Positions 5,874 to 59,532 of a DNA stretch of 64,000 nt are shown one piece after another. The notes under the pieces are model-generated. The model searched no databases. It was given only the letters and a program-made list of their open reading frames with translations, and had not been told where the DNA came from. The DNA is from Methanobacteriota archaeon. Its GTDB lineage: Archaea; Thermoplasmatota; E2; DHVEG-1. A program made the position numbers and the translations under genes. Within the stretch, counting starts at the first letter, position 1. Each line of letters opens with the position of its first letter. The stretch is from positions 140,495 to 204,494 of the forward strand of contig CAVYNH010000004.1 of assembly GCA_963769885.1 (NCBI GenBank). Direction: 5' to 3'.

Positions 5874-6180
5874 ATTTTATTTTATCTTAAAGGTCTCATT
5901 GTCTGGGCATTCATTATAAATAAAAAAAAACTGATTCTATTGAGTAAAATCTTTATTTAGAAAAAGAAAAAAGAAGGATTTTAGAGAGTAATGCAGGCGG
6001 ATTAAGAACGTGGTTTCTAAGCCGTTTGTTAAGACTTTCAACAGGAAGGAAAAAGTCTTAACCCCGACAGGAGCACATATTTTCCATAAAAAAACAATAT
6101 TGCTAGAGATTAGCACGAAGGTTGGGTTAGGTTTATATATCAGGAAAATCATGCTACATTATAACACGATTTTGACTGTT

Positions 6181-6228
6181 TTAGGGGTGGGGAACTGAAC
6201 AATAAGCACTCATGTCCGCCCCCGACAT
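6181..6228. repeat. conserved intergenic element, family A copy 1 (ttagg..gggaactgaacaataagcactcatgtccgcccccgacat), followed by a 7-bp GC hairpin at 6218..6250
   Basis: A near-identical copy lies at 9931..9977. The element shares the core cgcccccgacat with family B copies at 8781..8840 and 12146..12200. Confidence 0.6.
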
Positions 6229-6279
6229 TGACGAATCCTGAGGCGGGGGCTGAGAAGAGTATAGGGAGCGGTCGTACAT

Positions 6280-8604
6280 CTAAGAGGGTGCTATCCGGAT
6301 AAAGATAAGGAAAGCGTAACCGGCTGCGTTTTTAGTGATGGTGGGGATACCATCGGCGCAGACGGTGAAGGTGACGGTGAGGGGGCCGAAGGCGATGAAG
6401 GGGATGAAGGTTGCGGAAGCAGTTTTACCGGCGTCGATAGAGCTGATGTTGCCACATCGGAAGGTGCCAGAAAAGTTGAGCCAGGCTCCTTGGATGGTAT
6501 AGGTATAGACGATGTTGTTGGTAGTGCGGTTGCCGGGGTTGCTGAGGGTGGCTCGGAGTTGCATGAGGCCGCCTCTGATCTTGGTGATCTCGAGTTTGCC
6601 GCCTGCGGGGATAACATTCGCGGTGGTGGTATAAGGGAGGTAGTTGTGTTTGGTTACTGTGACGATCATGGTGCCGGTGGTGGTGGGTGCGACGGTGAAG
6701 GATACGATGCCTGAAATGCTAGTGGTGCCGACTTGGTAGACTTCAGTATTAAGAGTATCGCCTTTCCAGAGGCAGACGGTGGCACCTTCGATGGGGTTAT
6801 TGTTGCTGTCGGCGACGGTGACGTTGTAGGTGGAGGAGCCAACGGTGATACAGGATGGGTAGGTAACACGAAGCGTTCTTGGTGTTGCCGTCCAGATGGG
6901 TGTGCTAGGGTCGCCGAGGAGGGTGAGTTCGGTGTAGATGTATTGGTCGAGGTTGTCGCTGGAGATGCCGTCGTTCTTGTGATTTGAGAGGGCGGCGCCG
7001 ACCGTGTTTTGGTTGTGGGTAAAGATGGATCGAAAGAAGAGGCGGTCGAATTTGAGGCTGAGGCCGTTTTGGCTGCCTATATAGTACCAGCCGTAGCGGC
7101 TGTTGCCAATGAAGGCGATGCCGCCGCCGTGGGCGTTCCGGACAAAATGTTCGCCAATGCAAATATTCGCATCATATGCGCAGGGGTCGCAGCCCATGCT
7201 GTAGTAGATGCCTTGGCGTTGGGCGTTGGCGAGGCCGTCCATGTCGCCGCTGTCGATATACCAGCCGTGGTTGACCGACCCGGTGCCCATGGTGTAGATG
7301 CTGGAGTGGTCGGCGTGGTTCATGAGGTTCTGGCCGGCGTTGAGGGATTTGATGACGTTGTCGCGATGGTTGCCGCTTTCGCTGTCGTATACATGGGTCG
7401 TGTTCCAGCTGTGGGGGATGTAGGCGTCTTTAATGTTTTGTTTGCAGATCTCGACGTGGGTGCTGTTGTCGAGGTCGAAGCCGTACATGGCGGCGTTGGT
7501 GGCGAAGTTGTCGGCGGGGTGTTGTTCGTAGGCGAGGGTTTTGTTGATAAAGTTGCCGATCTGGCCGTTGCCGTCGCCGGAGCCGGTGACGCTGGCGCGG
7601 CCGACGTTGACTTCGATGGTCCAGTCTTCGTCGAAGTCAGCGTAGTAGGTGTCGTTGGGGACGGGGTCGGGGTCGACGGCGGGGAAGCTGTGGTAGTTGC
7701 AGGGGATGGTGCTGGTGTCGCCGCCGAGGAGGATATAGGTGGTGCCCCAATTGTCGTACACGTCTTTGGCGAAGGCGTTGATTTTCTGGTCCTTGCTGCC
7801 ATTGTAGCCGCTTTGGTTGTAGATCCAATCCGTGGTCATGATAATGGTGGGGATGCCGCATTGGGTGCGCCAGTCGGCGAGCGGTTGGAAGGCGTTGACC
7901 CAGTCGGGTTTGGTGATGATGACGTACTCGTAATGTCCGGGTGGGAGGCCTGTGGTGCGTGGTTTGGGGTTGTGTTGGAGGGCGATGTCGGGGGGGTTGA
8001 TGACTAGGTGTTGAACCTTGGCGATGCGTTGTTGGGTCTCGGTTGATGTGAGGCCGGTGGGGAGGTAGTCTCCGTAAGTATGGGTTGGCGTGCCGGTGAG
8101 GGTAATGGTGAGGCTGGTGGTGAGGGTGAGTGTTTTGTCGGCAGGGATGTAATGGATGGGGTAGATGGTGATGAGGGCGATGGCTTGACCTGCAAGGTCG
8201 GTCTCTGCGGTTAGTACGGCGGTCTGGGTTGGATAGGGTGTAGTGGAGTGGTAGGCTGTTTCGTCTGGTGATGTGAAGGTGTTGGTATCATCGTTGGTGG
8301 TGCGTGGTGTCTGTGTGGGCCAAATATTATAGGTGCCGATGAGGGGTTGGGTTCGTTGGTTGAGGATTTGGATGGCGGTGGCTTGAAGGTTGGGCGGGAG
8401 GGCTATTTTGAGGGTGATGGCGGGAAGGCTGGGTTTGCCTGGTTCGGTGGTGGTGCTGCCGTTTGTTGTGGTGATTTGGTCGTAGCCGTTGTATGTACTG
8501 AAGTCAAAGTCGTCGGATGTGAAGGTGATGGTGATTGTCTTGGTGGGGGTTGTGGTGGTTGCGGGTACGGTGGTCGTGAAGACGAGGCTGCCGATAATTA
8601 TCAA
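6280..8604 (-). CDS. secreted C25 (gingipain)-like cysteine peptidase with Thr-rich N-terminal linker
   Basis: A signal/TM and TTTTPTKT linker precede motifs YILLGGDTSTIPC, a His in MNHADHSS and a Cys in YYSMGCDPCAYD, which are C25-like. Closest paralog in window is 16082..18034. Confidence 0.55.
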   Translation of the reverse strand: MIIIGSLVFTTTVPATTTTPTKTITITFTSDDFDFSTYNGYDQITTTNGSTTTEPGKPSLPAITLKIALPPNLQATAIQILNQRTQPLIGTYNIWPTQTPRTTNDDTNTFTSPDETAYHSTTPYPTQTAVLTAETDLAGQAIALITIYPIHYIPADKTLTLTTSLTITLTGTPTHTYGDYLPTGLTSTETQQRIAKVQHLVINPPDIALQHNPKPRTTGLPPGHYEYVIITKPDWVNAFQPLADWRTQCGIPTIIMTTDWIYNQSGYNGSKDQKINAFAKDVYDNWGTTYILLGGDTSTIPCNYHSFPAVDPDPVPNDTYYADFDEDWTIEVNVGRASVTGSGDGNGQIGNFINKTLAYEQHPADNFATNAAMYGFDLDNSTHVEICKQNIKDAYIPHSWNTTHVYDSESGNHRDNVIKSLNAGQNLMNHADHSSIYTMGTGSVNHGWYIDSGDMDGLANAQRQGIYYSMGCDPCAYDANICIGEHFVRNAHGGGIAFIGNSRYGWYYIGSQNGLSLKFDRLFFRSIFTHNQNTVGAALSNHKNDGISSDNLDQYIYTELTLLGDPSTPIWTATPRTLRVTYPSCITVGSSTYNVTVADSNNNPIEGATVCLWKGDTLNTEVYQVGTTSISGIVSFTVAPTTTGTMIVTVTKHNYLPYTTTANVIPAGGKLEITKIRGGLMQLRATLSNPGNRTTNNIVYTYTIQGAWLNFSGTFRCGNISSIDAGKTASATFIPFIAFGPLTVTFTVCADGIPTITKNAAGYAFLIFIRIAPS

Positions 8605-8780
8605 AATTAAAGGGCAGCACAGGTGGTTTGTTTGAATACTTTTATTCCCCCTTTTTCTGGTGTTGAGAAGAGTTATACTTGCATGGTACTTTTAAAGGTT
8701 TTCCTGAAGTGTGCCTGAGGCTTCTCTTGAGTATGCCTGGGGGAAATATCCGGTGTAATATGTCAACTCAAATTGAAAGG

Positions 8781-8840
8781 ACCTAGAACGAAATCTGAAC
8801 CCCAGGGACTTATTCTCGCCCCCGACATCTTGTTGTACTA
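8781..8840. repeat. conserved intergenic element, family B copy 1 (aatctgaaccccagggacttattctcgcccccgacatcttgttgtactacgattcg)
   Basis: It aligns at about 75% over about 55 nt with 12146..12200. Both copies lie 110-170 nt upstream of secreted-protein genes. Confidence 0.55.
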
Positions 8841-8999
8841 CGATTCGCCTTTTCGGTGGAGGATTTGTTAGCACCTTGATATGCTCCGACCTGTAGATGC
8901 CGTCAACAGATGTTGTTATAAATAGTATAAATATAATTGAAATAGAGAAATATTTTTAAGAAGATGTCTTATACATAACAATGAAGAGGGAGGAAATCC

Positions 9000-9800
9000 A
9001 TGGCGAGATATCACCTTTTGAAGAAAAGTATAGCTGTTGGCATTATTAGCCTGTTCATTGGAGGATTAGCGACCTCAAGCGTCACCGTCAGGTGCGTGCA
9101 CGCATCTCAGGAACACACTCTTGTGACTGTGACTTCGGAGGTATGCGGTGCCCCAGGACTTGCCACACATACAGCCCTGATAACGGCACAGCAGTACCAG
9201 GAACTCGAGCAACAACTCGAAGCCATAAAGGAACGGCTAACACGCGGACTCTCGTATCAACAGACCATCGCAAGCATCCAGGAAATCGTGCGTGCGCTCA
9301 AGACCTATCAATTATTGCCACAAGGGGCGTCCATTGACCAAGTCCAACAGGCGATCGCAGGCCCATACGAGAATCCAACAGCGTTTATGGTGAGAGGAAA
9401 GGTAGCCCAGAGGAACGAGTTTTCCAGTAATCAAAGCAATTCCCTTTGTCTCATCAGCGGTACCGTTCAGGACGGGTCTGTCACTGGACCACTGGGGCTT
9501 GCGGGAGCAGCGATTGCGGCGTTAGGATTGATCCTCAAACAGAACCTCACAGCGGCCATCGGATTACTGCTGTTGGGTATAAGTCATTATATCACGACAC
9601 TTTCCCCCGTCTCACTCTTGCAACGAGTGACAATAAAATCAGGCAACATCACATCGGTCGGACTCAACGGTGTACAAATTTTCAATATCAGCAGCGAAAC
9701 TGGCGAAGGGGTGATATCCGGCTTCTCTGGGATTAAAATTACACGAGATGACACAAGCCAGATGAGCCTCCTTGGGTTCGCACTTGGCATCAAAGTATAG
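9000..9800 (+). CDS. membrane-anchored hypothetical protein (paralog of 57259..58107)
   Basis: An N-terminal TM anchor is followed by a conserved block VTVTSEVCGAPG...ITAQQYQELEQQLEAIKERL...YQLLPQGAS, matching VEVTTQACGIQG...LTRQQYQNLQQYL...YGLLPKGMS in the distant paralog. Confidence 0.5.
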   Translation: MARYHLLKKSIAVGIISLFIGGLATSSVTVRCVHASQEHTLVTVTSEVCGAPGLATHTALITAQQYQELEQQLEAIKERLTRGLSYQQTIASIQEIVRALKTYQLLPQGASIDQVQQAIAGPYENPTAFMVRGKVAQRNEFSSNQSNSLCLISGTVQDGSVTGPLGLAGAAIAALGLILKQNLTAAIGLLLLGISHYITTLSPVSLLQRVTIKSGNITSVGLNGVQIFNISSETGEGVISGFSGIKITRDDTSQMSLLGFALGIKV

Positions 9801-9930
9801 AACCAGAGGCTGCGCGCGGCGTCCGAGCGCTATCTGACAGGAAGCGCTTCTTGCCGTACATCGCACCAGCAGCTGAAAGCACCGATTTGCAACTGGTTCT
9901 CCTTAAACCAATTAAAAAAACCTGTGGTCA

Positions 9931-9977
9931 TTAGGAAAGGGAACTGAACAATACACACTCATGTCCGTCCTCGACAT
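9931..9977. repeat. conserved intergenic element, family A copy 2
   Basis: ttaggaaagggaactgaacaatacacactcatgtccgtcctcgacat differs from the 6181..6228 copy at only a few positions. Confidence 0.6.
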
Positions 9978-10086
9978 ATTTCATAATTAATTTGTTGTTT
10001 TTCCTTGGTGTTCTCCTGGTACAATTAAATATTACTATTCCAATACTCATAAATAGAGCAAGGACTTATAATGTTGAGGGGTTGCT

Positions 10087-11940
10087 ATGGCTCATCACGA
10101 CAAATCCCGGATCCTCATTTTATTAACGGCCCTAGTCATGATCAGTGCCTGCAGCGCCCAAGGATCATCACCAAAAGCCTCCAATATGGGTGAAGCCGGA
10201 GGGAAAGTTTTTGACGGGCAGATCCTGTTCTCCCCCTATTATACGACGACCACCTATTTGATCGATAGCAGCGGGACAGTGAATCATACGTGGCCAAGCG
10301 CGTATCGTCCCTTCACGGAGCCCTATTGGCTGGGGAATGGGACCATCCTTCGCCCCATCAGCTCCGGCGGCGGAGGCGTGCAAGAAATCCGCTGGGATGG
10401 GACCCTGGCATGGGACTATCGGTATACCGTCTCCGGGTGCACCTGCCACCATGACATCAAGTACCTCCCGAACGGAAACGTGCTCATGATCGTGTGGGAG
10501 ACAAAAACGAAGAACGAGGCCATTGCCGCCGGTCGGAATCCGGCGACCATCTCAGGGAGCACATTTACCTCCGATAAAATCATCGAGGTGCAGCCGACCG
10601 GCCCGACAAGCGGGACGGTCGTCTGGGAGTGGCACGTCTGGGACCATCTCATCCAGGATTTCGACGCCTCAAAGGCGAATTACGGGGTGGTCGGCGATCA
10701 CCCTGAACTGATTGACGTGAATTTTGGCGACGATTTCGTCGGCGACTGGCTGCATACCAATTCCGTTGATTACGACCCCCAGTTCAATCAACTCCTCATT
10801 GACAGCCATAACTTTGACGAGGTCTGGGTCATCGACCATAACACGACCACGGCGGAGGCCGCGGGCCACAGCGGTGGGCACTACGGGCATGGCGGAGACT
10901 TGCTCTACCGATGGGGAAATCCGCAAGCGTACCGACGGGGCACCTCCAGTGATCAAAAGTTATACTGGCAGCATGACGCCTCATGGATAGAACCTGGGTA
11001 TCCCGGTGCGGGACATGTCCTGGTGTTCAACAACGGCTACAACCGCCCGGGCACGAAATATTCGACCGTGGATGAGTTCGCGCCGCCGATCGATTCTAAC
11101 GGTGTGTATTATCTCGCGCCAGGGTCTTCCTATGGGCCTGCTGATTTCTTCTGGGACTTTACCGCGACTCCGCCCACCTCGCTGTATTCAACCGTGTTCG
11201 GCGGCGCCCTGCGCCTCACGAACGGGAATACGTTGATCTGCGATGGGATCCCGGGGAAGTTCTTGGAGGTGACCCCGGATAAGACCGTGGTCTGGCAGTG
11301 GACGAACCCGTATCCGAGTGCAGGTCAGAACAGCGTGTTCAAGATCGATTATATTCCCCATGATATCCCACCAAGTCCACCCCAAATAACAGGCCCGACG
11401 ACGGGAAAAGTCGGGGTTGCGGCACAGTATAATTTCACGGCCATTGACCCTGACGGGGAGGACATCTTCTACTGCATCGATTGGGGCGACCAGACGACTC
11501 CTACCTGGCTTGGCCCCTACCACTCTGGCCATGAGATACCCATGAATCACACCTGGGCTCAGACAGGGTTGTACTCGATCAGGGCGAAGGCGAAGGATGG
11601 CCACGGGGAAAGCGACTGGTCGGACCCGTTCGTGGTCACTATTATTGGTTCGATGCTCGAAACCAACATCGTGGGAGGCATTGGCGTCAAGGCAGTCATC
11701 GCGAACACGGGGGCATCGGACGCCATCGGTGTGCAATGGAAAATCAACGTTGAAGGCGGTGTCGCTGGGAGTATCAATAAGACGATGACCGGCACAGTGG
11801 ACATCCCGTCGCAACAATCGAAGACGGTGAGGACAGGCGTGTTCTTTGGGTTTGGGCCAATTAGCATAACAGTGATCGTCGATGGCGAGGAAACGACTGC
11901 AGAAGGAGCATATCTATTCGTCTTTTCGACGATAAAATGA
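10087..11940 (+). CDS. secreted lipoprotein-like aryl-sulfotransferase (ASST)-like beta-propeller protein with C-terminal PKD-variant (IDWGD) domain
   Basis: A signal peptide with a Cys precedes propeller-type repeats (HHDIKYLPNGN, WEWHVWDH, LHTNSVDYDP). The C-terminal module is DPDGEDIFYCIDWGDQTT..WLGPYHSG..HTW..GLYSIRAKAKDGHGESDWS. The ASST assignment is tentative. Confidence 0.45.
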   Translation: MAHHDKSRILILLTALVMISACSAQGSSPKASNMGEAGGKVFDGQILFSPYYTTTTYLIDSSGTVNHTWPSAYRPFTEPYWLGNGTILRPISSGGGGVQEIRWDGTLAWDYRYTVSGCTCHHDIKYLPNGNVLMIVWETKTKNEAIAAGRNPATISGSTFTSDKIIEVQPTGPTSGTVVWEWHVWDHLIQDFDASKANYGVVGDHPELIDVNFGDDFVGDWLHTNSVDYDPQFNQLLIDSHNFDEVWVIDHNTTTAEAAGHSGGHYGHGGDLLYRWGNPQAYRRGTSSDQKLYWQHDASWIEPGYPGAGHVLVFNNGYNRPGTKYSTVDEFAPPIDSNGVYYLAPGSSYGPADFFWDFTATPPTSLYSTVFGGALRLTNGNTLICDGIPGKFLEVTPDKTVVWQWTNPYPSAGQNSVFKIDYIPHDIPPSPPQITGPTTGKVGVAAQYNFTAIDPDGEDIFYCIDWGDQTTPTWLGPYHSGHEIPMNHTWAQTGLYSIRAKAKDGHGESDWSDPFVVTIIGSMLETNIVGGIGVKAVIANTGASDAIGVQWKINVEGGVAGSINKTMTGTVDIPSQQSKTVRTGVFFGFGPISITVIVDGEETTAEGAYLFVFSTIK

Positions 11941-12145
11941 AAAAAGGTTCAGTCATCCGTTGACCCGTTGGAATCTGGGAAGCATCTGAAGTCTCAGGGG
12001 CTCCTTCCGATTTCTGGCATGCTTCGATTTTTGGGGAATAATTTCAAGCGTACCCAATATCGCAATATTCAATAGATCACTTTTAAACCCTGCAAGGCAT
12101 ATTATACTTCGAGCTAGGTAAGCGCATTCATCTGTTAATCCTCAA

Positions 12146-12200
12146 AGAATCTGAACCCAGGGCTTAGCTCTTGCCCCCTACTCTCTAGTACAATTATCAA
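12146..12200. repeat. conserved intergenic element, family B copy 2
   Basis: aatctgaacccagggcttagctcttgccccctactctctagtacaattatc aligns with 8781..8840. Confidence 0.55.
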
Positions 12201-12290
12201 ATTTTATTACCTGTGTGAATCCGGTTCGTAGATAGGTAGATTAATAAATGAAATCTTCTATTTTAATTAACAACATACGGGGGATACTTC

Positions 12291-14234
12291 ATGAACAAGA
12301 AATGGTTCAGTCTCGTGGTATTGTTCCTATTATGCACGACGAGCTATGTCTGCGTCACCGCCAGCCAACCAGCAAGCTCTGACCCAGGAACGTCCTATAG
12401 GCTTCGTCTACACACTAAGGATGCACCTCGAGTCGCCGCTCAATTCATCAAAGAAGGATACGACGTCCTGGATGGAACCGTCACCGAAAACTCTTTTGAA
12501 CTCATCTGCCAGCCGCCTGTCTATCAGCGATTGCAGGCGCTGCAATACAACATGGATGTGCTTGCTCGTGGACAACCATTCAGCGAGATCCAACGCGAAC
12601 TGAACCAAGGGTCGACGCTTCCAGTGCCCCCCGGGTATCCAACGCTGGCTGAAATCCTCAATCAACTGAACACTACCGCGGCCGCGAACCCCTCCATCTG
12701 CAAGGTCTACAACCTCACGACAACCTACGGCACCAACGTGACCTATGAAGGCAGACATATGTGGGCGTTGAAGATCTCGGACAACGTCGCCGTCGATGAA
12801 GACGAGCCGAACTTCCTCAACGTCGGCAACTACCATGCCCGTGAAATCGTCACCCCGGTGCTCATCCTCTACGCCATTAACCAAATGGTCAGCGGCTATG
12901 GGACGAACCCGACAATCACCGGCATCGTCGACAATTATGAGCTCTGGTATGCTCCCACATGGAACCCCGACGGCTACAACTACGTCTACAACGTCGACAA
13001 CATGTGGCGGAAGAACCGCCATCCCTACCCGCCTGGTGTCGGTGTCGACCTGAACCGGAACTATAATATCGGCTGGAACGTCGCTGGCAGCACCGATCCT
13101 ACCTCTGAGGAGTACCGGGGTCCATTTGTTGCCTCGGAATCCGAGACGCAGACGATGGTCGCCTTCAACAACAACCGGCATTTCGCGAAAGTCCTGGATT
13201 ACCACTCCTCCGGCCGCGAGACCCTCTATGGTTACCTGACGTTGACCCACCCCTTCATCAGCTGGCTGCAGTCTGAGGCGGTGCAACTCTCGACACAGTC
13301 TGGGTATGGTGGTTCGGTTCGCCCGCCAAGTTCCGAAGGTGAAAACTACGAATGGCAGCTTGCCTGCAACGGCTCGTATTCGAACCTGATCGAGACCGCG
13401 ACCGATTTCCAGCCGTCCTACGCCAGCGCGCAGGCAGAGGCGGTCATGGTGTGGCCCGGGCAGTTGTGGATGCTGCAGCGGCCAATCTCCGTCAGCGGCC
13501 ATGTGACGAACGCGGTGACGGGCGCGCCCGTCGTCGCCTCCATCGTCCTTCAAGGCGTGAACTTCCAGAACGGGGAGTATTACCGCAGCGAGCATCGCTT
13601 TGGACGGTACCATCTTTTCCTGCCTCCAGCGACGTATACCCTCAATATTTCTGCCCCCGGGTACTTCTCGCAGACGCAGCAGGTGACGGTCACGCAGTCT
13701 AGTGCTGAAATCATCGAGATTCACCTTGCTCCGCTGAACGCGCCGCCGTCCAAGCCTGATATTACAGGTCCTACCTCTGGGCTTACCGACGAGCAGTTGG
13801 AGTACCGGTTCTCCTCCATTGACCCCGATAACGACACGATTTCTTACTCGATTGATTGGGGCGATGGGACCGCGCCGGTCTGGCTTGGCCCGTATCCATC
13901 CGGGTTCGAGGCGAATACGACGCATCAGTGGGTCTCTGCGGGAACGTACCCGGTGAAGGTCAAGGCCAAGGACCAAGTGGGTGCCGAGAGCAACTGGTCC
14001 ACGTCATTGTACGTGCATATCAACGCCTTCAAGCGGGCATTCGTCTTCGGGCTCATCTCGGAGAAGAACCAGACTAGTGAACTGATTACCTTCAAGGCGA
14101 AGTTCCTCCTGGTGCTGCCGTCGACGTCGATGCTGTACCATGCCGGTCAGACCATCGAGGTCTCCACTGATGGGAAGCTTGGCTTCATCGGTGAACATTT
14201 CGCCGCCGGATTCTTCAAGACATTGGTTCTTTGA
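12291..14234 (+). CDS. secreted zinc carboxypeptidase, peptidase family M14, with carboxypeptidase-regulatory-like and PKD-variant C-terminal domains
   Basis: A signal peptide is followed by the HxxE motif YHAREIV, NPDGY and DLNRNY, which are M14 signatures. A transthyretin-like block (SGHVTNAVTGAPV...) follows. The C-terminal module is IDPDNDTISYSIDWGDGTAPVWLGPYPSG...VKVKAKD. Confidence 0.7.
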   Translation: MNKKWFSLVVLFLLCTTSYVCVTASQPASSDPGTSYRLRLHTKDAPRVAAQFIKEGYDVLDGTVTENSFELICQPPVYQRLQALQYNMDVLARGQPFSEIQRELNQGSTLPVPPGYPTLAEILNQLNTTAAANPSICKVYNLTTTYGTNVTYEGRHMWALKISDNVAVDEDEPNFLNVGNYHAREIVTPVLILYAINQMVSGYGTNPTITGIVDNYELWYAPTWNPDGYNYVYNVDNMWRKNRHPYPPGVGVDLNRNYNIGWNVAGSTDPTSEEYRGPFVASESETQTMVAFNNNRHFAKVLDYHSSGRETLYGYLTLTHPFISWLQSEAVQLSTQSGYGGSVRPPSSEGENYEWQLACNGSYSNLIETATDFQPSYASAQAEAVMVWPGQLWMLQRPISVSGHVTNAVTGAPVVASIVLQGVNFQNGEYYRSEHRFGRYHLFLPPATYTLNISAPGYFSQTQQVTVTQSSAEIIEIHLAPLNAPPSKPDITGPTSGLTDEQLEYRFSSIDPDNDTISYSIDWGDGTAPVWLGPYPSGFEANTTHQWVSAGTYPVKVKAKDQVGAESNWSTSLYVHINAFKRAFVFGLISEKNQTSELITFKAKFLLVLPSTSMLYHAGQTIEVSTDGKLGFIGEHFAAGFFKTLVL

Positions 14235-14327
14235 AGAAAAAAATTTGACTCGAAGGATTGATACCCTTAGATCTAAATGGATAGAATTCATAATGAATTA
14301 ACACCCTGAGCGAGGGAGGGAGAACGT

Positions 14328-15974
14328 ATGAAAAAGAATCTCTGGGTCTTGATTGTCTGCCTGCTGCTGATAACATCGACTTTCACCTTCATCTCTTCGA
14401 CCATTGAGCCTGAAAAGAACGTCCGCGCCAATGAGGCGGCCGTGACCAAGGACTGCGGATGCGGTTTGGAGGATGAATCCGTTAGTCAAGAACCGGTTCG
14501 CACTCAGATTCTTGTGGATGAAACTGTCGGCGAGTCCGGAAGACCCGCGCCAGCCAGCGACTTACCCGCGTCTTTCAGCTGGTTAGACATGAATGGATCA
14601 GACTGGACGACGCCTGCCAAAGACCAAGGGAGCTGCGGCAGCTGCTGGGACTTCGCCGCGATCGGGGCGCTGGAAAGCATCATCCAGATCCAGGAGGGAT
14701 GCCCCGGGCTGCGGCTCGACCTCTCCGAGCAATACGTGCTGTCCTGCCTGCATGCGGCGGGAAGCTGCAAGGGCGGATGGGCGTATAACGCGTTCAAGTA
14801 CATCAAGAGCAACTCCTCAGCCGGGAATTTCTGCAATGGCATCATCCCAGAGTTTTGCTTCCCCTATCAGGTCAATGACGATGTCCCCTGTGCGAACGCC
14901 AGCCCCGACTGGAGATCGTTTCTCATCCCGATCACGAACTATGGCCGATGGGCTGCGAACGGCAGCGCTCAGGCCCGCGACGTGATAAAGACTCAGGTCA
15001 TGACTTTTGGGCCGGTTGCCGCCACGATGCTGTGCACCTATTATATCCATGGCGATGGAAATCTGGAGGAATGGGGCTATATGCACCATGATCCGACGGA
15101 GTACTATGCCTATCCGGGGCCATACACGGGCACGAACCACCAGGTGGTCATCGTCGGCTGGAAGGACGACGCCTCCATCCCGCACGGTGGCTATTGGATC
15201 GTGAAGAACAGTTTCGGCCCGGAATGGGGGTATGACGGGTTCTTCAACCTCGAGTACGGCAGCCTGCGGATCGATGCGGCGGATATCGACTGGGTGGAGT
15301 ACAACCCGGCGAACTACAGTAACTGGGTGCCGGTCGCCCAAATCGTGACCCAAGGGGCTGCATCCATGGACCAAGCGATCACGTTCAATGGGAGCACCAG
15401 TTTTGACCATGAAGGCAGCATCGTTTCATATCAATGGGACCTGGGCGATGGGACGAGCCAGCCCGGTCCGGTTGTCTCGCATTTGTATGCGAGCCCGGGG
15501 ATCTATCGGGTGACGCTGACGGTTACAGATAATGATAACAATACGGGGTCGCAGTCGGTGTGGGCGTATGTCGACAAGGTGAACCATCCACCAAAGACGC
15601 CGACGCTGCGAGGCCGGCGGTACGTGCAGCCGAATGAGACGTATTCGTATACGTTTTTCTCTGCTGATCCGGACGGCGACGACGTTTCCTATTATCTCAA
15701 TTGGGGGGATACGTACTGGTTTGGTGGAGCGGCGGGGTGGCTTGGCCCGTATCATAGCGGTCAGAAGGTGACCTTGGACAAGAACTGGACGGATAAGGCG
15801 AATTATACGGTGCGCGTCAAAGCCGCTGATCAGTACGGGGCGAAGAGCGGGTGGGCGACTCTGAAGGTCTCCAGTTCCGCTGTCTCAGTGGTCCCGGAGA
15901 ACGGGTTCTGGGCGCAGTTCTTCGAGCGGTTCCCGCATGCGTTCCCGGTCCTGCGGCGCCTCTTGGGGTATTGA
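14328..15974 (+). CDS. secreted papain-like cysteine peptidase (family C1) with canonical PKD plus PKD-variant C-terminal domains
   Basis: A signal peptide is followed by QGSCGSCWDFAAIGALES (catalytic Cys), His in NHQVVIVGW and Asn in YWIVKNSFGPEWG. One PKD domain follows (WDLGDGTS...YRVTLTVTD), then ADPDGDDVSYYLNWGD...WLGPYHSG...VRVKAAD. Confidence 0.7.
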   Translation: MKKNLWVLIVCLLLITSTFTFISSTIEPEKNVRANEAAVTKDCGCGLEDESVSQEPVRTQILVDETVGESGRPAPASDLPASFSWLDMNGSDWTTPAKDQGSCGSCWDFAAIGALESIIQIQEGCPGLRLDLSEQYVLSCLHAAGSCKGGWAYNAFKYIKSNSSAGNFCNGIIPEFCFPYQVNDDVPCANASPDWRSFLIPITNYGRWAANGSAQARDVIKTQVMTFGPVAATMLCTYYIHGDGNLEEWGYMHHDPTEYYAYPGPYTGTNHQVVIVGWKDDASIPHGGYWIVKNSFGPEWGYDGFFNLEYGSLRIDAADIDWVEYNPANYSNWVPVAQIVTQGAASMDQAITFNGSTSFDHEGSIVSYQWDLGDGTSQPGPVVSHLYASPGIYRVTLTVTDNDNNTGSQSVWAYVDKVNHPPKTPTLRGRRYVQPNETYSYTFFSADPDGDDVSYYLNWGDTYWFGGAAGWLGPYHSGQKVTLDKNWTDKANYTVRVKAADQYGAKSGWATLKVSSSAVSVVPENGFWAQFFERFPHAFPVLRRLLGY

Positions 15975-15976
15975 GA

Positions 15977-16065
15977 CCCCCCTTTCTTTTTTTCCTTTTC
16001 CTTGATGAGAGTTGATGAACGAGCAAGAAAAAGGGGGAAGTCCCCGGGTTTAGCGGCCGGGGGAC
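15977..16065. terminator. bidirectional terminator region: oligo-T tract immediately after the stop at 15974, plus GC hairpin gtccccgg/ccgggggac at 16040..16065, between convergent genes
   Basis: A T-rich run (ctttctttttttccttttcc) sits next to an 8-9 bp GC stem between convergent ORFs. Confidence 0.4.
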
Positions 16066-35074: not shown

Positions 35075-35912
35075 TCAATAAGTGTCTGGCAGGAGGTAGA
35101 TATCGATCCATGTTGGTGTAATAGTTCCGATGGGATTGTGGAAGGTAAATTTTCGGGGTAAAAGGAGCCGGGGGAATGGTAGGAGTCCCAGTGGAACCCC
35201 ACTCGCTCCATCATATATGGTTAGTATTGCTCGGAACGTGATGGATTCACTGTTGTTAACGACTTCTTTGACTAAGCCCCAAACGTGGGTGATGTCGGGT
35301 GGGATTCCATCGCATACACACATAGAGAGGCCTGCATTATCGTAGGCGAGTATTTTGAATGTAAAATTTCCATTTGGCAGAGGGTGATGGAGGATGCAAT
35401 AGTACGGAGGCTCTGAATCATTTCCGATGAGCTCTTGACCTTGGTAGAACTCGATGCGGTTGACACCACTCGTAGCGTCGTCGGCAACCACGTAGGAGCA
35501 GAAGTTATTCCTTGACACATGCCGGCATTTTTCAACATAAACGGGTACTATCGTATCCATCTTGAAAGGCTGTTGTTTGTATGGTTCGTAGTTGCCTGCG
35601 TTGTCAATCGACCAATACGTAATCAAATGTTGTCCATCCCCTGAGACGTTAAATGGATAATGGTAAGTCATCTCTTCGCCGCCATCGACTTTATATTTAG
35701 TACCTGCAGACCCCTGATTCGTTGTCGATGGCCGTCAAGGTCACACGGACTTGCGAGACATACCAGTCGTTTTCCCCCATCGTACCGTACAAGGAACAGG
35801 TTGTGAACGGCGGCGTCACGTCATCCCGCGGCGGCATCCCTGAGCTCGTGAAAATAATAGGTTCAGTAACGAGGAGTAGCAGAATGAGCATCGCGGTGTT
35901 TCGTTGTCTCAT
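35075..35912 (-). pseudogene. frameshifted member of the secreted OmpL47/Ig-like domain paralog family
   Basis: The N-terminal fragment (35697..35912) carries the signal and GMPPRDDVTPPFTT. The body (35075..35671) carries DGQHLITYWSIDNAGNYEP. A single frameshift near 35700 joins them: TKYKVDGGEEMTYHYPF matches TFYRFDGGSFLVYTAPF of the neighbour. Confidence 0.45.
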
Positions 35913-35936
35913 TTTTTACCAGCTATCCTTTTCTTT

Positions 35937-36764
35937 TCAAGTAGGGAGTGGGAAGAGGTAGATGTCGATCCAGTGGGGGCTGACCTCGCCGTCGTAGTAG
36001 GAGAAGGTGTAATTACGGGGTAGGAGGAGCCGAGGGAGAGGGAAGAGAGAAAACGGATGTCTATTCGCGGGGTCGTACATGGTGAAGACCGCCCGGAAGG
36101 TGACCAATGTGTTGGTGGAGTTGATGTCGGTGACGATCCTTTTGACGTGGGTGATGTCTTTGGGGGTGGGGCCTAAAATAAAACATGAGAGCCCAGCGTT
36201 GTTATAGGCGATACCTTTCACCGATATATTCCTCTGTGGATGATGAAGGATGTAACAATAAGGAGGCGTTGAATCGATCTTGACGAGTTCTCCGTTACAG
36301 AAAAACTCTACCCTATTTACTCCACTTGTGTGGTCCTGAGAATCGACGCCAAAGCAAACCTCATTCAAGGAGACGTGTTGGCTTGAATTGTAGGTTGGCA
36401 CAGTCGTATCAATCTTGACTTCTTGGACATGCCACGGCTCGACGTTGCCCGCATTGTCAACAGAGTAATAGAATATTTGGTGAACACCGTCCCATGCGAT
36501 GTCGAACGGCGCGGTGTAGACGAGGAAGGAGCCGCCGTCGAATCTGTAGAACGTGGCGTTCACGCCCGACTCGTTATCGACCGCGGTCAAGGTGATGCGA
36601 ACCGACGATATGTACCAGCCGTTGTCCCCCAGCGTCCCGCTCAACATGATGGTCGTGACCGGCGGCGTCACGTCATCGCGCGGAGGCATCCCTGAACTCG
36701 TGAAAATAATGGGGTCGGCTACGAGGAGCAGAAGAATAAGCATAACGATATTTCGGTGCTTCAT
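35937..36764 (-). CDS. secreted OmpL47-type/Ig-like domain protein (paralog)
   Basis: A signal peptide precedes the GMPPRDDVTPPVTT motif and FYRFDGGSFLVYTAPFDIAWDGVHQIFYYSVDNAGNVEP. Confidence 0.5.
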   Translation of the reverse strand: MKHRNIVMLILLLLVADPIIFTSSGMPPRDDVTPPVTTIMLSGTLGDNGWYISSVRITLTAVDNESGVNATFYRFDGGSFLVYTAPFDIAWDGVHQIFYYSVDNAGNVEPWHVQEVKIDTTVPTYNSSQHVSLNEVCFGVDSQDHTSGVNRVEFFCNGELVKIDSTPPYCYILHHPQRNISVKGIAYNNAGLSCFILGPTPKDITHVKRIVTDINSTNTLVTFRAVFTMYDPANRHPFSLFPLPRLLLPRNYTFSYYDGEVSPHWIDIYLFPLPT

Positions 36765-36787
36765 TTTTTACCAACCATCCTTTCCTT

Positions 36788-37624
36788 TCATGGAGGGAGC
36801 GGGAAGAGATAGATATCAATCCAATGCTGCTTGATTTCCCCGTCATAATTGGTGTAGGTGTACATTTTGGGAAGCAGGAGCCGTGGGAGTGGCAGGGGAG
36901 AACATGGATTCCGGTTCGCCGGGTTGTACAAAGTGAAGATTGCCCTGAACGTGATCGAGGTATTTGTGCAGTTCACGTCGGTGACGATTCCTTTGATATG
37001 GGTCAGATCGAATTCGATAGTCCCGACGGAGATTGACAGCCCAGCATTGTCAAAGGCGATGATTCTCATTGTCGAATTTTTTGGGAATAACCATTTAGGG
37101 TGTATAATACAACAATATGGTGGGTCTGAATCATTTTGGACTAGTTCTCCATTAAAATAGAACTCGACCCTGTTCACACCGCTTCCATAGTCGTCTGCAT
37201 CCGCTCCAAAACAGTATTCTGTCAAGGAAACATGCTTGTAAGGAGTATAGGTTGGTGGGGTTGTATCGATCTTCACGTTTTGTGTATGCCACGGCTCGAC
37301 GTTGCCCGCATTGTCCACAGAATAGAATTCGAACGTATGAATTCCATCCCCAACAACGGTGAAAGGACCCGTATAAATGTGGATGTCCCCTGAATCAATC
37401 CGGTAAAAGGTGGCGTTCACCCCGGATTCGTTGTCGATGGCAGTCAAGGTGACATTGACGTTCGAGATGTACCAGTTATTTGCCCCGTTTGGAGCAGGTG
37501 GGTTCAAGGTCGCGGTGGTGACCGGCGGCGTCACGTCGTCACGCGGTGGCGTCCCCATGACGAACCCAGCCGACAGCAGACTACCGAGAAAGCACAGGAC
37601 CAGGATCTTTTTTGATGCAGGCAT
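36788..37624 (-). CDS. secreted OmpL47-type/Ig-like domain protein (paralog)
   Basis: The same architecture: GTPPRDDVTPPVTT and FYRIDSGDIHIYTGPFTVVGDGIHTFEFYSVDNAGNVEP. Confidence 0.5.
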   Translation of the reverse strand: MPASKKILVLCFLGSLLSAGFVMGTPPRDDVTPPVTTATLNPPAPNGANNWYISNVNVTLTAIDNESGVNATFYRIDSGDIHIYTGPFTVVGDGIHTFEFYSVDNAGNVEPWHTQNVKIDTTPPTYTPYKHVSLTEYCFGADADDYGSGVNRVEFYFNGELVQNDSDPPYCCIIHPKWLFPKNSTMRIIAFDNAGLSISVGTIEFDLTHIKGIVTDVNCTNTSITFRAIFTLYNPANRNPCSPLPLPRLLLPKMYTYTNYDGEIKQHWIDIYLFPLPP

Positions 37625-40797: not shown

Positions 40798-41414
40798 AAC
40801 GATTACTCGCCGTCCAAATCGGCATCATCCTCGTCCTCGCCGGAGGCATCCTCTACTCCTCCGGCGTCTACACCGCGGTCCAGGACAACATCGTTGAGGT
40901 TCTCTGCCTCAGCTGCATCAAACTCGAGCCGAAGACCTCCGTAGCCTTCACCTTCCTGACCGCCACCGGCGCCCCACACCCCCTCTTCATCCGCGAGAAC
41001 CTCACGGCCGCCCCCATCATGATTATGTACAGCGAGGACGTCTGCGCCGCCTGCGAAGAGATGTACCCCGTCGTCAAACACATGCTGAACGTCACCTTCG
41101 ACAAAGACGACATGGTCTACACCCACACGACTTTCCAAGGGGAGAATGTCACCTTCTTCTTCATCAACATCGACCACACCACCGCCCAGCTCCGCGACAC
41201 CCGGCCGCTCTACGACAAGGAACACGTCGACGGCCTCCCGATGTTCACCTTCATCACGCTCCGATACGACGAAGGCACCGTCCACCCCTACTACACCAGC
41301 GTCTACGGGACCCTGACTCTTCCGAATTCAGCCGAACGCGAGGCTTTCCTCGCCAACATCCTCACCGACAGCATCCACCTCTACCACGAAAACAGAATCG
41401 GCTACCAGCCATAG
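40794..41414 (+). CDS. membrane-anchored CxxC protein (thiol-disulfide system component?)
   Basis: The ATGA start overlaps the stop of the upstream gene. A TM anchor is followed by CLSC and CAAC motifs. Confidence 0.4.
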   Translation: MKRLLAVQIGIILVLAGGILYSSGVYTAVQDNIVEVLCLSCIKLEPKTSVAFTFLTATGAPHPLFIRENLTAAPIMIMYSEDVCAACEEMYPVVKHMLNVTFDKDDMVYTHTTFQGENVTFFFINIDHTTAQLRDTRPLYDKEHVDGLPMFTFITLRYDEGTVHPYYTSVYGTLTLPNSAEREAFLANILTDSIHLYHENRIGYQP

Positions 41415-41458
41415 AAAAGAGAAAAAGGAAAAAAAGGGGAAAATGAACGCGCTTTCCC

Positions 41459-41623
41459 TTACAACTCGCCGCTTCTGATTTTTTGTCTTAGGATGTCAAA
41501 CTGAGCGCGGGTCAGGGTGCAGATGTTGTTCTTTTCACCGATTATCACGCGGTCTTCGCGCACGTCGACAACCGGGCATTTTGGAGGCGTACATACGCCA
41601 TCGTGGCAGAGAACGACTTTCAT
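41459..41623 (-). CDS. small Cys-rich protein (54 aa), not in ORF track
   Basis: The ORF reads MKVVLCHDGVCTPPKCPVV...RSGEL, and the C-x4-C-x4-C pattern suggests metal binding. Confidence 0.25.
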   Translation of the reverse strand: MKVVLCHDGVCTPPKCPVVDVREDRVIIGEKNNICTLTRAQFDILRQKIRSGEL

Positions 41624-41899
41624 AGTTATCCCCTTACTTATTGGTGTTTATTAAAGCTCTTGAACTTTATAAAGATTATGGTTGTCTCTATCCTAAAACG
41701 CATTATGTTTAATTAAAATCGGGCTTGTTATTGGGTCTTTTCGTTAAACAGACTTAATCTTTTCTTTGCACAGGAATATATGTAAAACGAACATTACGGG
41801 TAAAACGGTGAAAAAAATCCAACACATAAGAACATTATTTCAATCATATACTTTTTAAACAGATTCATCATATGAGATTTTATTGATGAGGGTATTATT

Positions 41900-42505
41900 A
41901 TGAGTGAATATCCATATTGTCAGGCAAGAAACAAAATTAAGCCATTTTTTGAGAAAATACAAAGTATAGGAAAGCCAGATAAAGTAACTGTAAAATGGTT
42001 AACTAGCATTGGTTATAAATCATCCAATGACCGCACGATATTATCAGTTTTAAAATTTATCAATTTTACTGATGAAGCAGGAGTTCCCACCAATAAATGG
42101 CAACAATATAAGAATAAGTCAAAATCAAAAATAGTAATGGCTCAAGGAATTCAAATGGGTTATTCTGAACTATTTAAAATATATCCAGATGCTAATAGCC
42201 AAGGAAGAGTAGAATTAACTAATTTCTTCTCAGAAAAAACAGAAGGCGGAAGTGCGGTAGTAGAAAAAATGGTTAGTACATTTACGGAATTATGCTCCTT
42301 GGCCGATTTCGGTTCGGTTGGAGAAGTATCAACAGAAGACGAAAAGACTACCGATACTGAACAAAAAACAAAAAAGGGAGATACCAGCTATAGTGGAAAA
42401 GGATACATCATCAATATCAATATTCAATTAACTGTGCCGGAGACTACTGATGGTGATGTATACGAAAAATTTTTTGCAGCAATGAAAAAGCATCTTTTCT
42501 CTTGA
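41900..42505 (+). CDS. hypothetical protein in AT-rich island (partner of HEPN gene)
   Basis: A 201 aa ORF at about 33% GC, 6 nt upstream of the next ORF. Confidence 0.4.
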   Translation: MSEYPYCQARNKIKPFFEKIQSIGKPDKVTVKWLTSIGYKSSNDRTILSVLKFINFTDEAGVPTNKWQQYKNKSKSKIVMAQGIQMGYSELFKIYPDANSQGRVELTNFFSEKTEGGSAVVEKMVSTFTELCSLADFGSVGEVSTEDEKTTDTEQKTKKGDTSYSGKGYIININIQLTVPETTDGDVYEKFFAAMKKHLFS

Positions 42506-42511
42506 GCAAAT

Positions 42512-43045
42512 ATGAAATCTTTACAAGAAATTCTCGATAAAACAAACAAGTTTGAAGAAGAAGCACATAGAATTTTTTCTAAACATGAAGGAACAAAATC
42601 AGGAACAGTCACACTTACCCAAACTCAAAAAAGACTAACTTGTTTATCTCTTAAACAAAATGAATTATTACAAGAAGCTATAAAAAGTATAAAAAATGAA
42701 TTATATCGAGGAGCCTATGTTCTTGCCTGGGCAGCGTTTATAGATTTTTTAGAAGAAAAACTTGCATCAGATGGATTGGTCAAAGTCAAACAACATAGAC
42801 CTAATTGGAGTAAGTTTAAAACAATCGAAGAGTTAAGAGAAAACGTTCCCGAATTTCAATTAATTGATGTGGCACACGATGTTAATCTCTTGACAAAAGC
42901 TGAGACTAAAACTATACAGGGTTTACTATCAAAAAGAAATGAATGTGCTCATCCAAGTTCTTATACTCCTCGTTTTGCTGAGAGTCTTGGATACCTTGAC
43001 GAAATATTCAATCGCATTGAACAGATACAAAAAAGAAATATGTGA
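42512..43045 (+). CDS. HEPN-domain protein (Rx4-6H motif RNECAH)
   Basis: The C-terminal LSKRNECAHPSSY matches the HEPN R-x4-H signature in an alpha-helical 177 aa protein. Confidence 0.4.
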   Translation: MKSLQEILDKTNKFEEEAHRIFSKHEGTKSGTVTLTQTQKRLTCLSLKQNELLQEAIKSIKNELYRGAYVLAWAAFIDFLEEKLASDGLVKVKQHRPNWSKFKTIEELRENVPEFQLIDVAHDVNLLTKAETKTIQGLLSKRNECAHPSSYTPRFAESLGYLDEIFNRIEQIQKRNM

Positions 43046-43144
43046 AACTATACAAACAAAAAAAGAATCTCTCTTCTGAGAAGTTTTCTAATTTCTCTAG
43101 AAGATTTAGTAATTCGTCCGTTTATCCATTAATCAAAAAATGTT

Positions 43145-43651
43145 CTATCGTCTAGACCTTCTTGCCCTCCTTGGTCTCCTTTCTGTAACACAACTGCATT
43201 TGGTATATCCTTCTTTCTCTAACAGTTCAATAGCATGAGAGTCTTTAATCCCCACTAATTTCGTCTTTTCGCCTTGATAGTGGCTGCATTTGGATATGTG
43301 AATAATTCTTTTCCCTTCATCAACAAGATATGTTGAAAGTCTTGAGTTTCTTTCTGCTCGAAGAAAAACTGTTGCTGCTAATACAACGAAAAAAAACATT
43401 GCTACAAGCAGGATAGCTGTCTCCGCAATTTTTGTTTCGAGCGGGGTTTGCTCATTTAGAATAGTATTTAATTGACCTCCGATCCAAACTACCATACCAC
43501 CAGCAATACCAGCAATAAATCTCTTTGCAAAATCATGATAGACCTTACGTTCCTGTTCAGCAAATTTACGCAAAGTCAATATGTAGTAAGCAGAAATTGC
43601 TGAAGTAGTTATTAGAAGTATAGCTAACGAGGCTAGCGTTATAATTTCCAT
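43145..43651 (-). CDS. membrane protein with C-terminal Cys/His-containing domain
   Basis: Three TM helices are followed by ISKCSHYQG...KCSCV. Confidence 0.35.
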   Translation of the reverse strand: MEIITLASLAILLITTSAISAYYILTLRKFAEQERKVYHDFAKRFIAGIAGGMVVWIGGQLNTILNEQTPLETKIAETAILLVAMFFFVVLAATVFLRAERNSRLSTYLVDEGKRIIHISKCSHYQGEKTKLVGIKDSHAIELLEKEGYTKCSCVTERRPRRARRSRR

Positions 43652-43926
43652 GCTTCAGGTATTCTATTGAGCTGTAAAATATCTTTCCTTAATTCACAGT
43701 CATACCCAGGCGGAGAGTTGGGTGGCGTGATGGGGTCTAACTTCCCTGCAAGTTGTTCCAACGCCTCAGTCTGAGTCAAAGATATAGAAGGAAGTCATGT
43801 GTAGAAAATTATACCTGGATGGAGATATGGAAATATAGATTATGCTGTTTCTATACAAAATTTTATTATGTTGAATCAAAAACCGACCCTCTTGTAAAGC
43901 AGTTTGGAAGTGGTTTTTCGTCTTTG

Positions 43927-56896: not shown

Positions 56897-57208
56897 CCTC
56901 TGTTCCCCCGTTCAGATTCATTAGGTGGTGCCGTATTTTAATGTTGTGCTAAGGAGGGGTGGGTTATCCTTGGTTCTTTTGGTGTGGTAGTAGGTGTAAC
57001 CCGAGGAAGTCAGCCTGGTTTTCGTCTGCTCGCAGGGGGAATCCGGGTCGCCGACGCAGCACAGACCGTGCCCCGGATATTCTACCATTAATTTCCTATT
57101 CCCAATCTGTAACTTAAGTAAGTCTCGCTATTCAAAACTATGTTAGAAGGAATTCTATATTATTATATCTGCAAGAAATAGAAATGACGTATGAAGGATG
57201 AAAAAAGC

Positions 57209-57235
57209 GCAGGGGAAGGGATTTGAACCCTTGTT
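57209..57235 (-). other. partial copy of tRNA 3' end (T-arm + acceptor 3' strand; gcgcaggggaagggatttgaaccc)
   Basis: A 22-24 nt identity to the 3' part of the tRNA-Leu at 59533..59617. No 5' half was found. Confidence 0.5.
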
Positions 57236-58107: not shown

Positions 58108-58400
58108 CTATTCTGCCCCATTTGAAAATGAAGAATACTTCTCTATTTAAAATCTCCGTTAACGTGATTTCTCCAGAAATGAACCGGTATTTCGGAGTTC
58201 AAATCATTTTTTTGTATTCTAGAATTCTTCTCCAGTAAAAATAAGAAAAAAGTGCAGGGGAAGTGATACCAACCTCAAGTTTAAATCTCACGGATCCGTG
58301 GGGGGGTACCTGGTTCCCTCCTAGTGGATTGTTCAATATTGGCCTGTTCTTTGGTTTGTTGAGCAAAGCGGGACTGCTCGTCTTAAATCAGCGAAACAAG

Positions 58401-59291: not shown

Positions 59292-59532
59292 TGAAATGCC
59301 CAGGGCGGGTATTTGATTTTAAGTCATCCAGACAAGAAAAAAGAATCAGAGTGCCGCAGGAGGGGATACTGAGCCGGGTTAAATACCCCCGTCCTATTAT
59401 AGCTGAATCTGTGTGGGTCTGGAGGCAGCTATAGGAGGTTTTTTTCAGACTGAAAGGTTCAAATCTCTTTTTTTAACCACAATAGCATTCATTGTGGTTT
59501 CACTAAGGTTTTCTCCTGTAGAACGGTAAAAG

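Follow-up and report, generated by a model that had tools for sequence, protein, structure and literature searches.

Integrative elements and genomic islands of archaea and bacteria that enter the 3′ ends of tRNA genes reportedly leave attL and attR direct repeats there. For archaea, integrons and clusters of attC sites lacking integron-integrases (CALINs) have been reported, CALINs being common and many arrays having no integrase nearby (PMC9668308). For bacteria, the Dehalococcoides ssrA genomic islands (PMC3146451) and the cis-mobilizable element (CIME)/accretion model in streptococci (PMC5704250) reportedly involve serial site-specific insertion into the 3′ terminus of a single small-RNA gene, giving tandem units parted by short direct repeats of that terminus. 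Here we compare with these systems a family of intergenic repeats of about 40 nt found in a 64,000-nt stretch of DNA (hereafter the window) from a Methanobacteriota archaeon placed by GTDB in the Thermoplasmatota (E2; DHVEG-1; assembly GCA_963769885.1, contig CAVYNH010000004.1, positions 140,495 to 204,494). Each repeat consists of a 5′ arm and a 3′ box, the latter being the 3′ end of a tRNA(CAU) gene. We consider it likely, though by no means assured, that the repeats are att-type recombination junctions derived from a tRNA 3′ end and that they bound serially inserted one-gene cassettes; a role as gene switches or small RNAs is improbable.

Comparison with described systems

As in tRNA-targeted integrative elements, the repeat is a tRNA 3′ end, an intact tRNA gene stands at one end with co-oriented partial copies downstream, the content between repeats varies, and one array, at a tRNA-Leu gene, has a foreign base composition. 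We found identity between repeat and tRNA, an intact tRNA gene together with partial copies, and breakpoints at the repeat. An integrase or recombinase in or beside the inserts was not found among 47 proteins of the window, 28 neighbour proteins of its relatives and the precomputed Pfam lists of L203 to L212 (L-numbers denote compared loci or contigs). The present arrays differ from tRNA-targeted elements in having no integrase in any interval, in holding 0.3–2.6 kb with one cellular-type gene instead of a virus or plasmid, and in that the inserted side bears a conserved 25-nt arm common to many unrelated cassettes and genomes. Since the units carry one gene and no recombinase was found, they stand closer to integron cassettes or cis-mobilisable islets than to integrated viruses or plasmids.

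With integron arrays they share mostly one-gene units in a single orientation, each with a (here putative) terminal recombination site, and a content that varies among close relatives. The site is nevertheless only about 40 nt long, compared with 57–141 nt for attC, and it has no RYYYAAC..GTTRRRY ends: by inspection, the + strand of the core contains no GTT, and GTTAATT and GTTCAGT on the − strand have no AAC partner. The anchor is a tRNA(CAU) gene behind an aIF2-gamma gene and a PIN-domain gene, not an attI beside intI, and at least one cassette, that of the ASST gene, has its own promoter. Neither IntI nor another tyrosine recombinase was found among the proteins examined. Because the attC signature and IntI are both absent, the system is not an integron.

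The ssrA islands and CIMEs resemble our arrays in the (here putative) serial insertion at one small-RNA gene that leaves tandem units parted by short direct repeats, and CIMEs reportedly have no recombinase of their own and depend on one acting in trans. They are nonetheless bacterial and several to tens of kb long, the active ones encoding an integrase, whereas the units here carry one gene and belong to Thermoplasmatota. Finally, repetitive extragenic palindromic (REP) sequences, bacterial interspersed mosaic elements (BIMEs) and miniature inverted-repeat transposable elements (MITEs) are likewise short, GC-rich, partly palindromic and intergenic, often lying just past a stop codon. Here, by contrast, all copies at a locus point the same way, a tRNA end makes up the 3′ half, and the copies cluster downstream of that tRNA gene rather than being dispersed. 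No terminal inverted repeats or target duplications were seen, nor any inverted partner near the five loci tested, and with an arrangement unlike theirs, an origin as a MITE or other insertion-sequence-derived repeat was rejected. An earlier note on this DNA had listed relics of miniature mobile elements among its explanations; recombination footprints are indeed what the tRNA 3′-end repeats of att type suggest, though not those of MITEs.

Repeats in the window

The cores located in the window, with their coordinates and strand, are as follows.

6189–6228, + strand: core A (A-type), arm GGGGAACTGAACAATAAGCACTCATG and 3′ box TCCGCCCCCGACAT (6215–6228) equal to the tRNA(CAU) 3′ end; nhmmer E about 7e-14
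From 6181, + strand: G-rich extension of core A; element A in full is 6181–6228
8789–8828, + strand: core C, with C-type arm AATCTGAACCCCAGGGACTTATTCT and box CGCCCCCGACAT (8817–8828); left breakpoint of a swapped cassette
9938–9977 (element 9931–9977), + strand: core B, with A-type arm and box CGTCCTCGACAT (9966–9977); right breakpoint of the swapped cassette
12145–12183, + strand: core D, a decayed C-type copy with CTGAAC at 12151–12156 and decayed box TTGCCCCCTAC at 12171–12181
6062–6069, + strand: a possible further 3′ box remnant, CCCCGACA, adjoining the trailer-like AACAGGAAGGAAAAAG (6040–6055); a weak candidate read from the sequence only

The four copies that the earlier note had described are thus all present on the + strand where it placed them, and A and B are as alike as it said, with 35 of 39 positions identical over GGGAACTGAAC..CGACAT. 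The shared ctgaac core holds for A, B and C, which all fit CTGAAC-N16-CGYCCYCGACAT with equal spacing; D keeps CTGAAC, but its 3′ box has decayed. C and D do align with each other, over about 40 columns with three 1-nt gaps and not over the 55 nt proposed. Their distances to the following genes were given about correctly, 172 nt separating the end of C from the ATG at 9000 and about 100 nt the end of D from position 12291. The GC hairpin said to follow A amounts to GCCCCC (6218–6223) and GGGGGC (6245–6250), the left arm of which lies inside the element itself. A looser pattern, CTGAAC-N15-35-CGACAT, has four matches in the window against 0.20 expected, a number reached in 0 of 100 shuffles; the fourth match (41085) sits in coding sequence and is a chance match.

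Across the family, the invariant 3′ box reads (T)CC(C)GCCCCCGACA(T), and the 5′ arm of about 25 nt belongs to one of two families, A-type GGGAACTGAACAATTAACACTGATG or C-type CTGAACCCCRGGGA. Arm and box meet at one constant position in every copy. Read as DNA, the core forms an imperfect inverted repeat, GGGAAC-T-GAACA / TGTCC-GCCCCC.

Identity of the 3′ box with the end of a tRNA gene

The origin of the box was recognised by fetching loci that encode ASST homologues and scanning them with the core profile. One match, in L211 (..GCGGGTTCAAATCCCGCCCCCGACA TGCTATTCTTTAGCAC), turned out to be the 3′ terminus of a tRNA(CAU) gene with an intron. The Rfam model RF00005 finds this gene at 53–59 bits in L155 (662–776), L174 (124–241) and L211 (9330–9444), with an intron of 42–45 nt after the anticodon loop; it is also present in L167 (reverse strand), and ARAGORN misses it. 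The 3′ box corresponds to the 3′ strand of the T-stem, the 3′ strand of the acceptor stem and the discriminator base, that is, to the last 13–17 nt of the tRNA. The 12-mer CCGCCCCCGACA occurs 29 times in the AT-rich loci, five times as a tRNA(CAU) 3′ end (L155, L167, L174, L200 and L211) and 24 times in an arm-bearing core. Where tRNA end and cores share a contig, the match is exact over 12–17 nt (L155, L167, L174 and L200), and cores of the L167 type match 17 nt of the tRNA, AACTCCCGCCCCCGACA, reaching into the T-loop.

In all five of these loci the cores are preceded by an intact tRNA(CAU) gene that points the same way and heads an array.

L155: tRNA, NosD-like gene, core, 186-aa gene, core
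L174: tRNA, PQQ/PKD gene, core
L167: tRNA, 370-aa gene, core, two genes, core
L200 and L211: likewise headed by the tRNA

The downstream flanks, GCTATTTATTAGCACGG.. or CCTATTTATATACTCAACAGGAGAAAA.., follow the tRNA gene and the cores alike. A further motif, ACAGGAGAAA(A), was seen 13–28 nt downstream of tRNA genes of differing identity, after a T-rich stretch (for example at 59508–59518 on the − strand of the window and in L205, L174, L167 and L155). Since ACAGGAGAAA also stands behind ordinary tRNA genes, it is tRNA trailer sequence and no signal of the secretome.

A second, analogous array in the window is headed by a different tRNA.

59532–59617, − strand: intact tRNA-Leu(CAA), head of the array
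58252–58289, − strand: incomplete direct repeat of the tRNA-Leu 3′ end that carries an arm of its own: GAGATTTAAACTTGAGGTTGGTATCACTTCCCCTGCAC; closes the first one-gene interval, that of a nitroreductase gene (58509–59291)
57208–57230, − strand: another incomplete direct repeat of this tRNA-Leu end, GGGTTCAAATCCCTTCCCCTGCG; closes the second one-gene interval (57259–58107) and the low-GC island

This segment has 35–46% GC, against about 60% outside it. The conserved arm of its first repeat, GAGATTTAAACTTGAGG.., recurs in L174 and L195. In L212 an intact tRNA-Leu gene lies 148 nt upstream of the ASST gene, and in L210 a tRNA-Leu 3′ fragment lies upstream of it, so that ASST cassettes are found behind sites of the tRNA(CAU) type and of the tRNA-Leu type in different genomes.

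Cassettes and their exchange between close relatives

Taking each core as the end of the unit before it, the segment from core A onwards is divided as follows.

6229–8828: cassette 1, peptidase C25 gene (6280–8604, − strand) and core C
8829–9977: cassette 2, gene of a 266-aa signal-peptide protein (9000–9800, + strand) and core B
9978–12183: cassette 3, ASST+PKD gene (10087–11940, + strand) and core D
12291–14234: M14 carboxypeptidase gene, beyond core D

Three of the four core-separated gene products have signal-peptide-like N-termini, the exception being the C25 open reading frame, whose N-terminus as called is apparently truncated. That frame has no ATG: its TTG start (8604) falls inside an apparent signal-peptide end, with a stop 70 nt upstream, and the protein may be truncated or may use an unusual start codon. 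The 266-aa protein is of unknown family.

A contig from a close relative, L209, whose ASST protein is 90% identical to that of the window, shows a cassette exchanged at the cores. BLASTN finds four collinear blocks of 89–97% identity between the two. Positions 1–1745 of L209 match window positions 7084–8828 at 96.8%, and this match breaks off with the final base of core C. The interval that follows is unrelated in the two genomes, with 1137 nt in the window (the 266-aa gene and the A-type arm of B) and 1175 nt in L209 (an unrelated 201-aa gene and a C-type-like arm), after which the similarity returns at window position 9966, the first base of the CGTCCTCGACAT box of B. The breakpoints of the swap are therefore 8828/8829 and 9965/9966. 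Having occurred between genomes 89–97% identical, the swap is recent.

Variation is likewise seen at the tRNA(CAU) site of other relatives. To its left, the aIF2-gamma gene, the PIN-domain gene and the tRNA(CAU) gene are conserved, and to its right a 192-aa gene and an FAD/FeS gene; between the tRNA and the 192-aa gene, gene content differs in L174, L144 and L211. L202 has the layout of cassette 3, an A-type core, the ASST gene and a C-type core, with upstream neighbours that differ from those in the window, where the corresponding cores are B and D. Its second core (L202b) is the intact C-type counterpart of D and lies downstream of the orthologous ASST gene, while the two ASST proteins are only about 75% identical. 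The ASST cassette brings its own promoter, a block conserved between the window and L202 that stands about 50 nt from the core in the former and about 135 nt in the latter.

Distribution of the family

In our scan of the genome collection with CTGAAC-N16-CGYCCYCGACAT there were at least 119 matches, nearly all of them chance matches in GC-rich bacteria; among the matches listed, the only real relatives were L080 and L104, both Thermoplasmatota metagenome-assembled genomes. A tighter pattern applied to metagenome contigs gave 23 matches in 21 AT-rich contigs (31–52% GC), its matches in GC-rich contigs being rejected as chance. A search of these contigs with the 40-nt core profile added other copies of greater divergence, among them the C-type L202b. 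The conservation in relatives on which the earlier note had made its proposal depend was thus found, with about 30 more copies in 22 other contigs, all AT-rich and from Thermoplasmatota. In the viral collection the core had no real match, and the tRNA(CAU) end matched only a bacterial tRNA-Met; no viral or plasmid attP was found there.

Cores were co-oriented in all nine contigs with two or more of them (counting the window, and including the decayed or partial copies D and L178 1–22), at spacings of 0.3–2.6 kb that mostly hold one gene; one interval in L190, of 7.1 kb, is the exception. The neighbours are mainly exported proteins (NosD/beta-helix, PKD, fn3, PQQ propeller, GSDH, ASST and transglutaminase-like), and many carry a common C-terminal module of about 90 aa. 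The orientation of genes relative to the cores is loose: by our tally about 23 of 28 upstream genes and about 19 of 28 downstream genes run in the direction of the core, and about a quarter of the copies face a convergent gene. The link with secreted hydrolases is real, and it reflects the content of the cassettes, not regulation.

Some 40-mers recur unchanged in different contexts and metagenomes (L153, L189, L195 and L196a), and decayed copies also occur (D, L178b, L190b and the C-type copy of L211). Around the cores a wider module of about 200 nt is conserved, comprising a T-run, ACGATTTT, TATA-like boxes and AACAGGAGAAAA. A TATA-like box (TATTTATA, TTTAAATA) lies 2–3 nt past CGACAT in about 20 of 30 copies and is followed by a conserved AACAG(G/A)AGAAAA. 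The window copies do not have the conserved flanks, and no TATA-like box follows A or C. The conservation of the A-type arm and of the 200-nt module may reflect binding by a recombinase, use as promoter or terminator, or both.

Two observations were made in passing on the surroundings of the cores. A repeated intergenic module, GTCATTGATTCGCACAAAACATGAGTTAAACCGTGCTAATGCTTGACCGCT..TATATAAAG, which is the far-upstream part of many A-type cores, flanks the 266-aa gene homologue of L207 on either side (about 7830–7880 and 8990–9060) and also occurs downstream of the ASST gene in L202 (reverse strand). Genes of AbiEii or of AbiEi/AbiEii toxin-antitoxin pairs adjoin core arrays in L202 (4301–5248, − strand) and L189 (2437–4211, − strand), the latter also having a Cas4-like gene; such AbiE pairs fit a mobile neighbourhood.

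Proposed mechanism

According to the reading as att-type junctions, small DNA segments, usually with one gene for a secreted or surface protein, would be inserted one after another at the tRNA 3′ end by site-specific recombination. Every insertion would add one copy of the box downstream in constant orientation, which would give the co-oriented arrays; the box would be the part that belongs to the tRNA, and the arm the part that travels with the inserted DNA. We infer that the recombinase is encoded elsewhere and is probably of the tyrosine or serine type. It would cut probably within GCCCCCGACAT, because main-type cores miss one C of the T-stem and a crossover further left would damage the tRNA gene. 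The arm and its conserved flanks would then be recombinase binding sites, and the cassettes may be able to leave as circles.

Several points weigh against this reading. No integrase or recombinase domain was found in the three protein sets named above. There is no tRNA(CAU) gene within the window, so that the array of cores A to D is seen without its head. A clean swap was found only once, and two further differences from L209 do not have a box at each end: a 294-nt segment of the window (11938–12231, which holds D) stands against 85 unrelated nt in L209, and a papain-like C1+PKD gene (14269–16040) is absent from L209 (7026–7128) with no cores bounding it. Among the sequences examined, neither a circular cassette nor an empty site was seen. 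The A-type arm is conserved far beyond what a passive footprint would need, which implies a function, and with a TATA-like box behind the 3′ box in about two thirds of the copies, the module may also act in transcription. Recombination between short repeats during gene transfer could, moreover, give the same pattern, including the swap.

Alternative explanations

The first alternative is that core and TATA-like box form a promoter or regulatory module, that is, a transcription-factor site or upstream promoter element that was taken over from the DNA behind the tRNA gene and that drives or regulates the neighbouring genes for secreted proteins. The position of the TATA-like box and the AACAG(G/A)AGAAAA behind it speak for such a module, as do the predominance of exported proteins among the neighbours and the imperfect inverted repeat, which suits dimeric DNA-binding proteins. 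The distance to the ASST promoter, however, differs nearly threefold between the window and L202, about nine in 28 downstream genes are not co-oriented, copies A and C have no TATA-like box, and ACAGGAGAAA is trailer sequence also found behind ordinary tRNA genes. In addition, six other genes for secreted proteins in the window have no core, and homologues of the 266-aa gene in L203, L205 and L207 lie in other contexts without cores, so that co-conservation with this gene was also rejected. We regard a promoter module as unlikely, although it could coexist with a recombinational origin. The proposal of the earlier note, operators of a secretion or protease regulon, is not supported on the same grounds: the elements have no fixed position or orientation relative to promoters and are not conserved together with orthologous genes.

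The cores might instead be inert leftovers, decaying remains of ancient segmental duplications around the tRNA or of plasmids or viruses that integrated and died long ago. That no recombinase was found is in keeping with this, as are the four decayed copies and the window copies without conserved flanks. Yet identical 40-mers persist in different genomes while the ASST proteins of L202 and the window have diverged to about 75% identity, the junction between arm and box is constant in all copies, and the cassette swap is recent. To this explanation we give little credence.

An RNA element is a very improbable third explanation. It would be a hairpin or tRNA-like minihelix serving as a processing or stabilising signal (a substrate of RNase P/Z or of the CCA-adding enzyme), or a small RNA with a C-rich seed. 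The folding of the core first appears to favour it: on the + strand an upstream G-rich stretch pairs with CCGCCCC in A, B and many relatives, on the − strand the 36-nt core of the main type forms an 11-bp stem with three G-U pairs (−12.9 kcal/mol), the mean fold is −9.7 on the − strand versus −4.4 on the + strand, and the 3′ box is a tRNA acceptor end. When 5′ arms were swapped among 28 copies, however, native sequences folded no better than chimeras (−7.0 versus −7.2 kcal/mol, p = 0.79). This permutation test finds no covariation, and with it the apparently compensatory + strand hairpin (GGGG/CCCC in A, AGGA/TCCT in B) was rejected. The − strand hairpin is real as a symmetry of sequence but is not kept in arm variants. 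The left-arm variants TCGACA, TCGGAA and CAGGAA are uncompensated on the right, which means that sequence and not structure is conserved. Six copies are almost free of a hairpin, single-sequence z-scores are weak, the T-run lies before and not after the + strand hairpin, and 13–17 nt of tRNA are too short for a minihelix of T-arm and acceptor. Rfam has no match to the elements at the gathering score or at E ≤ 10. Neither the 5′ untranslated-region structure nor the small-RNA family suggested earlier is thus supported, with no Rfam match and no covariation.

Other candidates were dismissed: a larger structured RNA, as RNAalifold over −45..+95 found only the local core stem; a micro open reading frame from ATGTCG on the − strand (MSGADMSAYCSV..), which by inspection has no synonymous bias, is broken in D and varies in length; C/D box, H/ACA and kink-turn readings of CUGA..UGAUG, in which, again by inspection, box order, spacing and the key G are not conserved; and a replication origin with origin recognition boxes, which failed on sequence features and arrangement.

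Other features of the window

Several secreted proteins of different families end in a common motif, (R)FPHAFPxLRxLLGY, which follows a module of about 90 aa that includes PKD; the motif was noted at the end of the papain-like protein (15930–15974), in L178 (418–2259), in L189 (9247–10482) and in the ASST of L202, and may be a lineage-specific sorting or anchoring signal. The genes of the window fall into two classes by composition. One has a C-rich sense strand, about 60% GC and a skew per kb of up to −0.58 (+0.59 for genes on the − strand), strongly skewed regions being, for example, 22–25 kb, 26–28 kb, 38–41 kb and 50–54 kb. The other, which includes the cassette genes at 9–15 kb, has no skew and 50–55% GC; intergenic DNA is AT-rich. 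At 35075–37624 (− strand) there are three neighbouring genes for Big_7 (bacterial Ig) proteins, two of which are tandem paralogues with 71–77% nucleotide identity and a period of about 852 nt. Finally, a segment at 41400–44000 has 33–37% GC and holds a DUF5343 gene and two open reading frames without a family match; no flanking direct repeats and no tRNA fragment were found at this segment.

Implications

A broader idea, which we put forward tentatively and with more doubt than belief, is that sediment Thermoplasmatota (relatives of Thermoplasmatales archaeon SG8-52-1) have an integron-like platform at tRNA genes, where one-gene cassettes made up with arm and box, mostly for secreted hydrolases and surface proteins, are captured, excised and exchanged by a recombinase encoded elsewhere. 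These sediment archaea are thought to live largely off buried protein, using secreted peptidases. If the idea is true, exchangeable cassettes for exported enzymes at tRNA genes would explain the variation in extracellular enzymes among close relatives, and a second cassette system, one not based on attC, would be added to the archaeal record. Such repeats should not be annotated as regulatory RNAs or operators. A box from a tRNA end next to a conserved arm is also a simple tag by which variable regions and recently moved genes can be picked out in fragmented metagenome assemblies.

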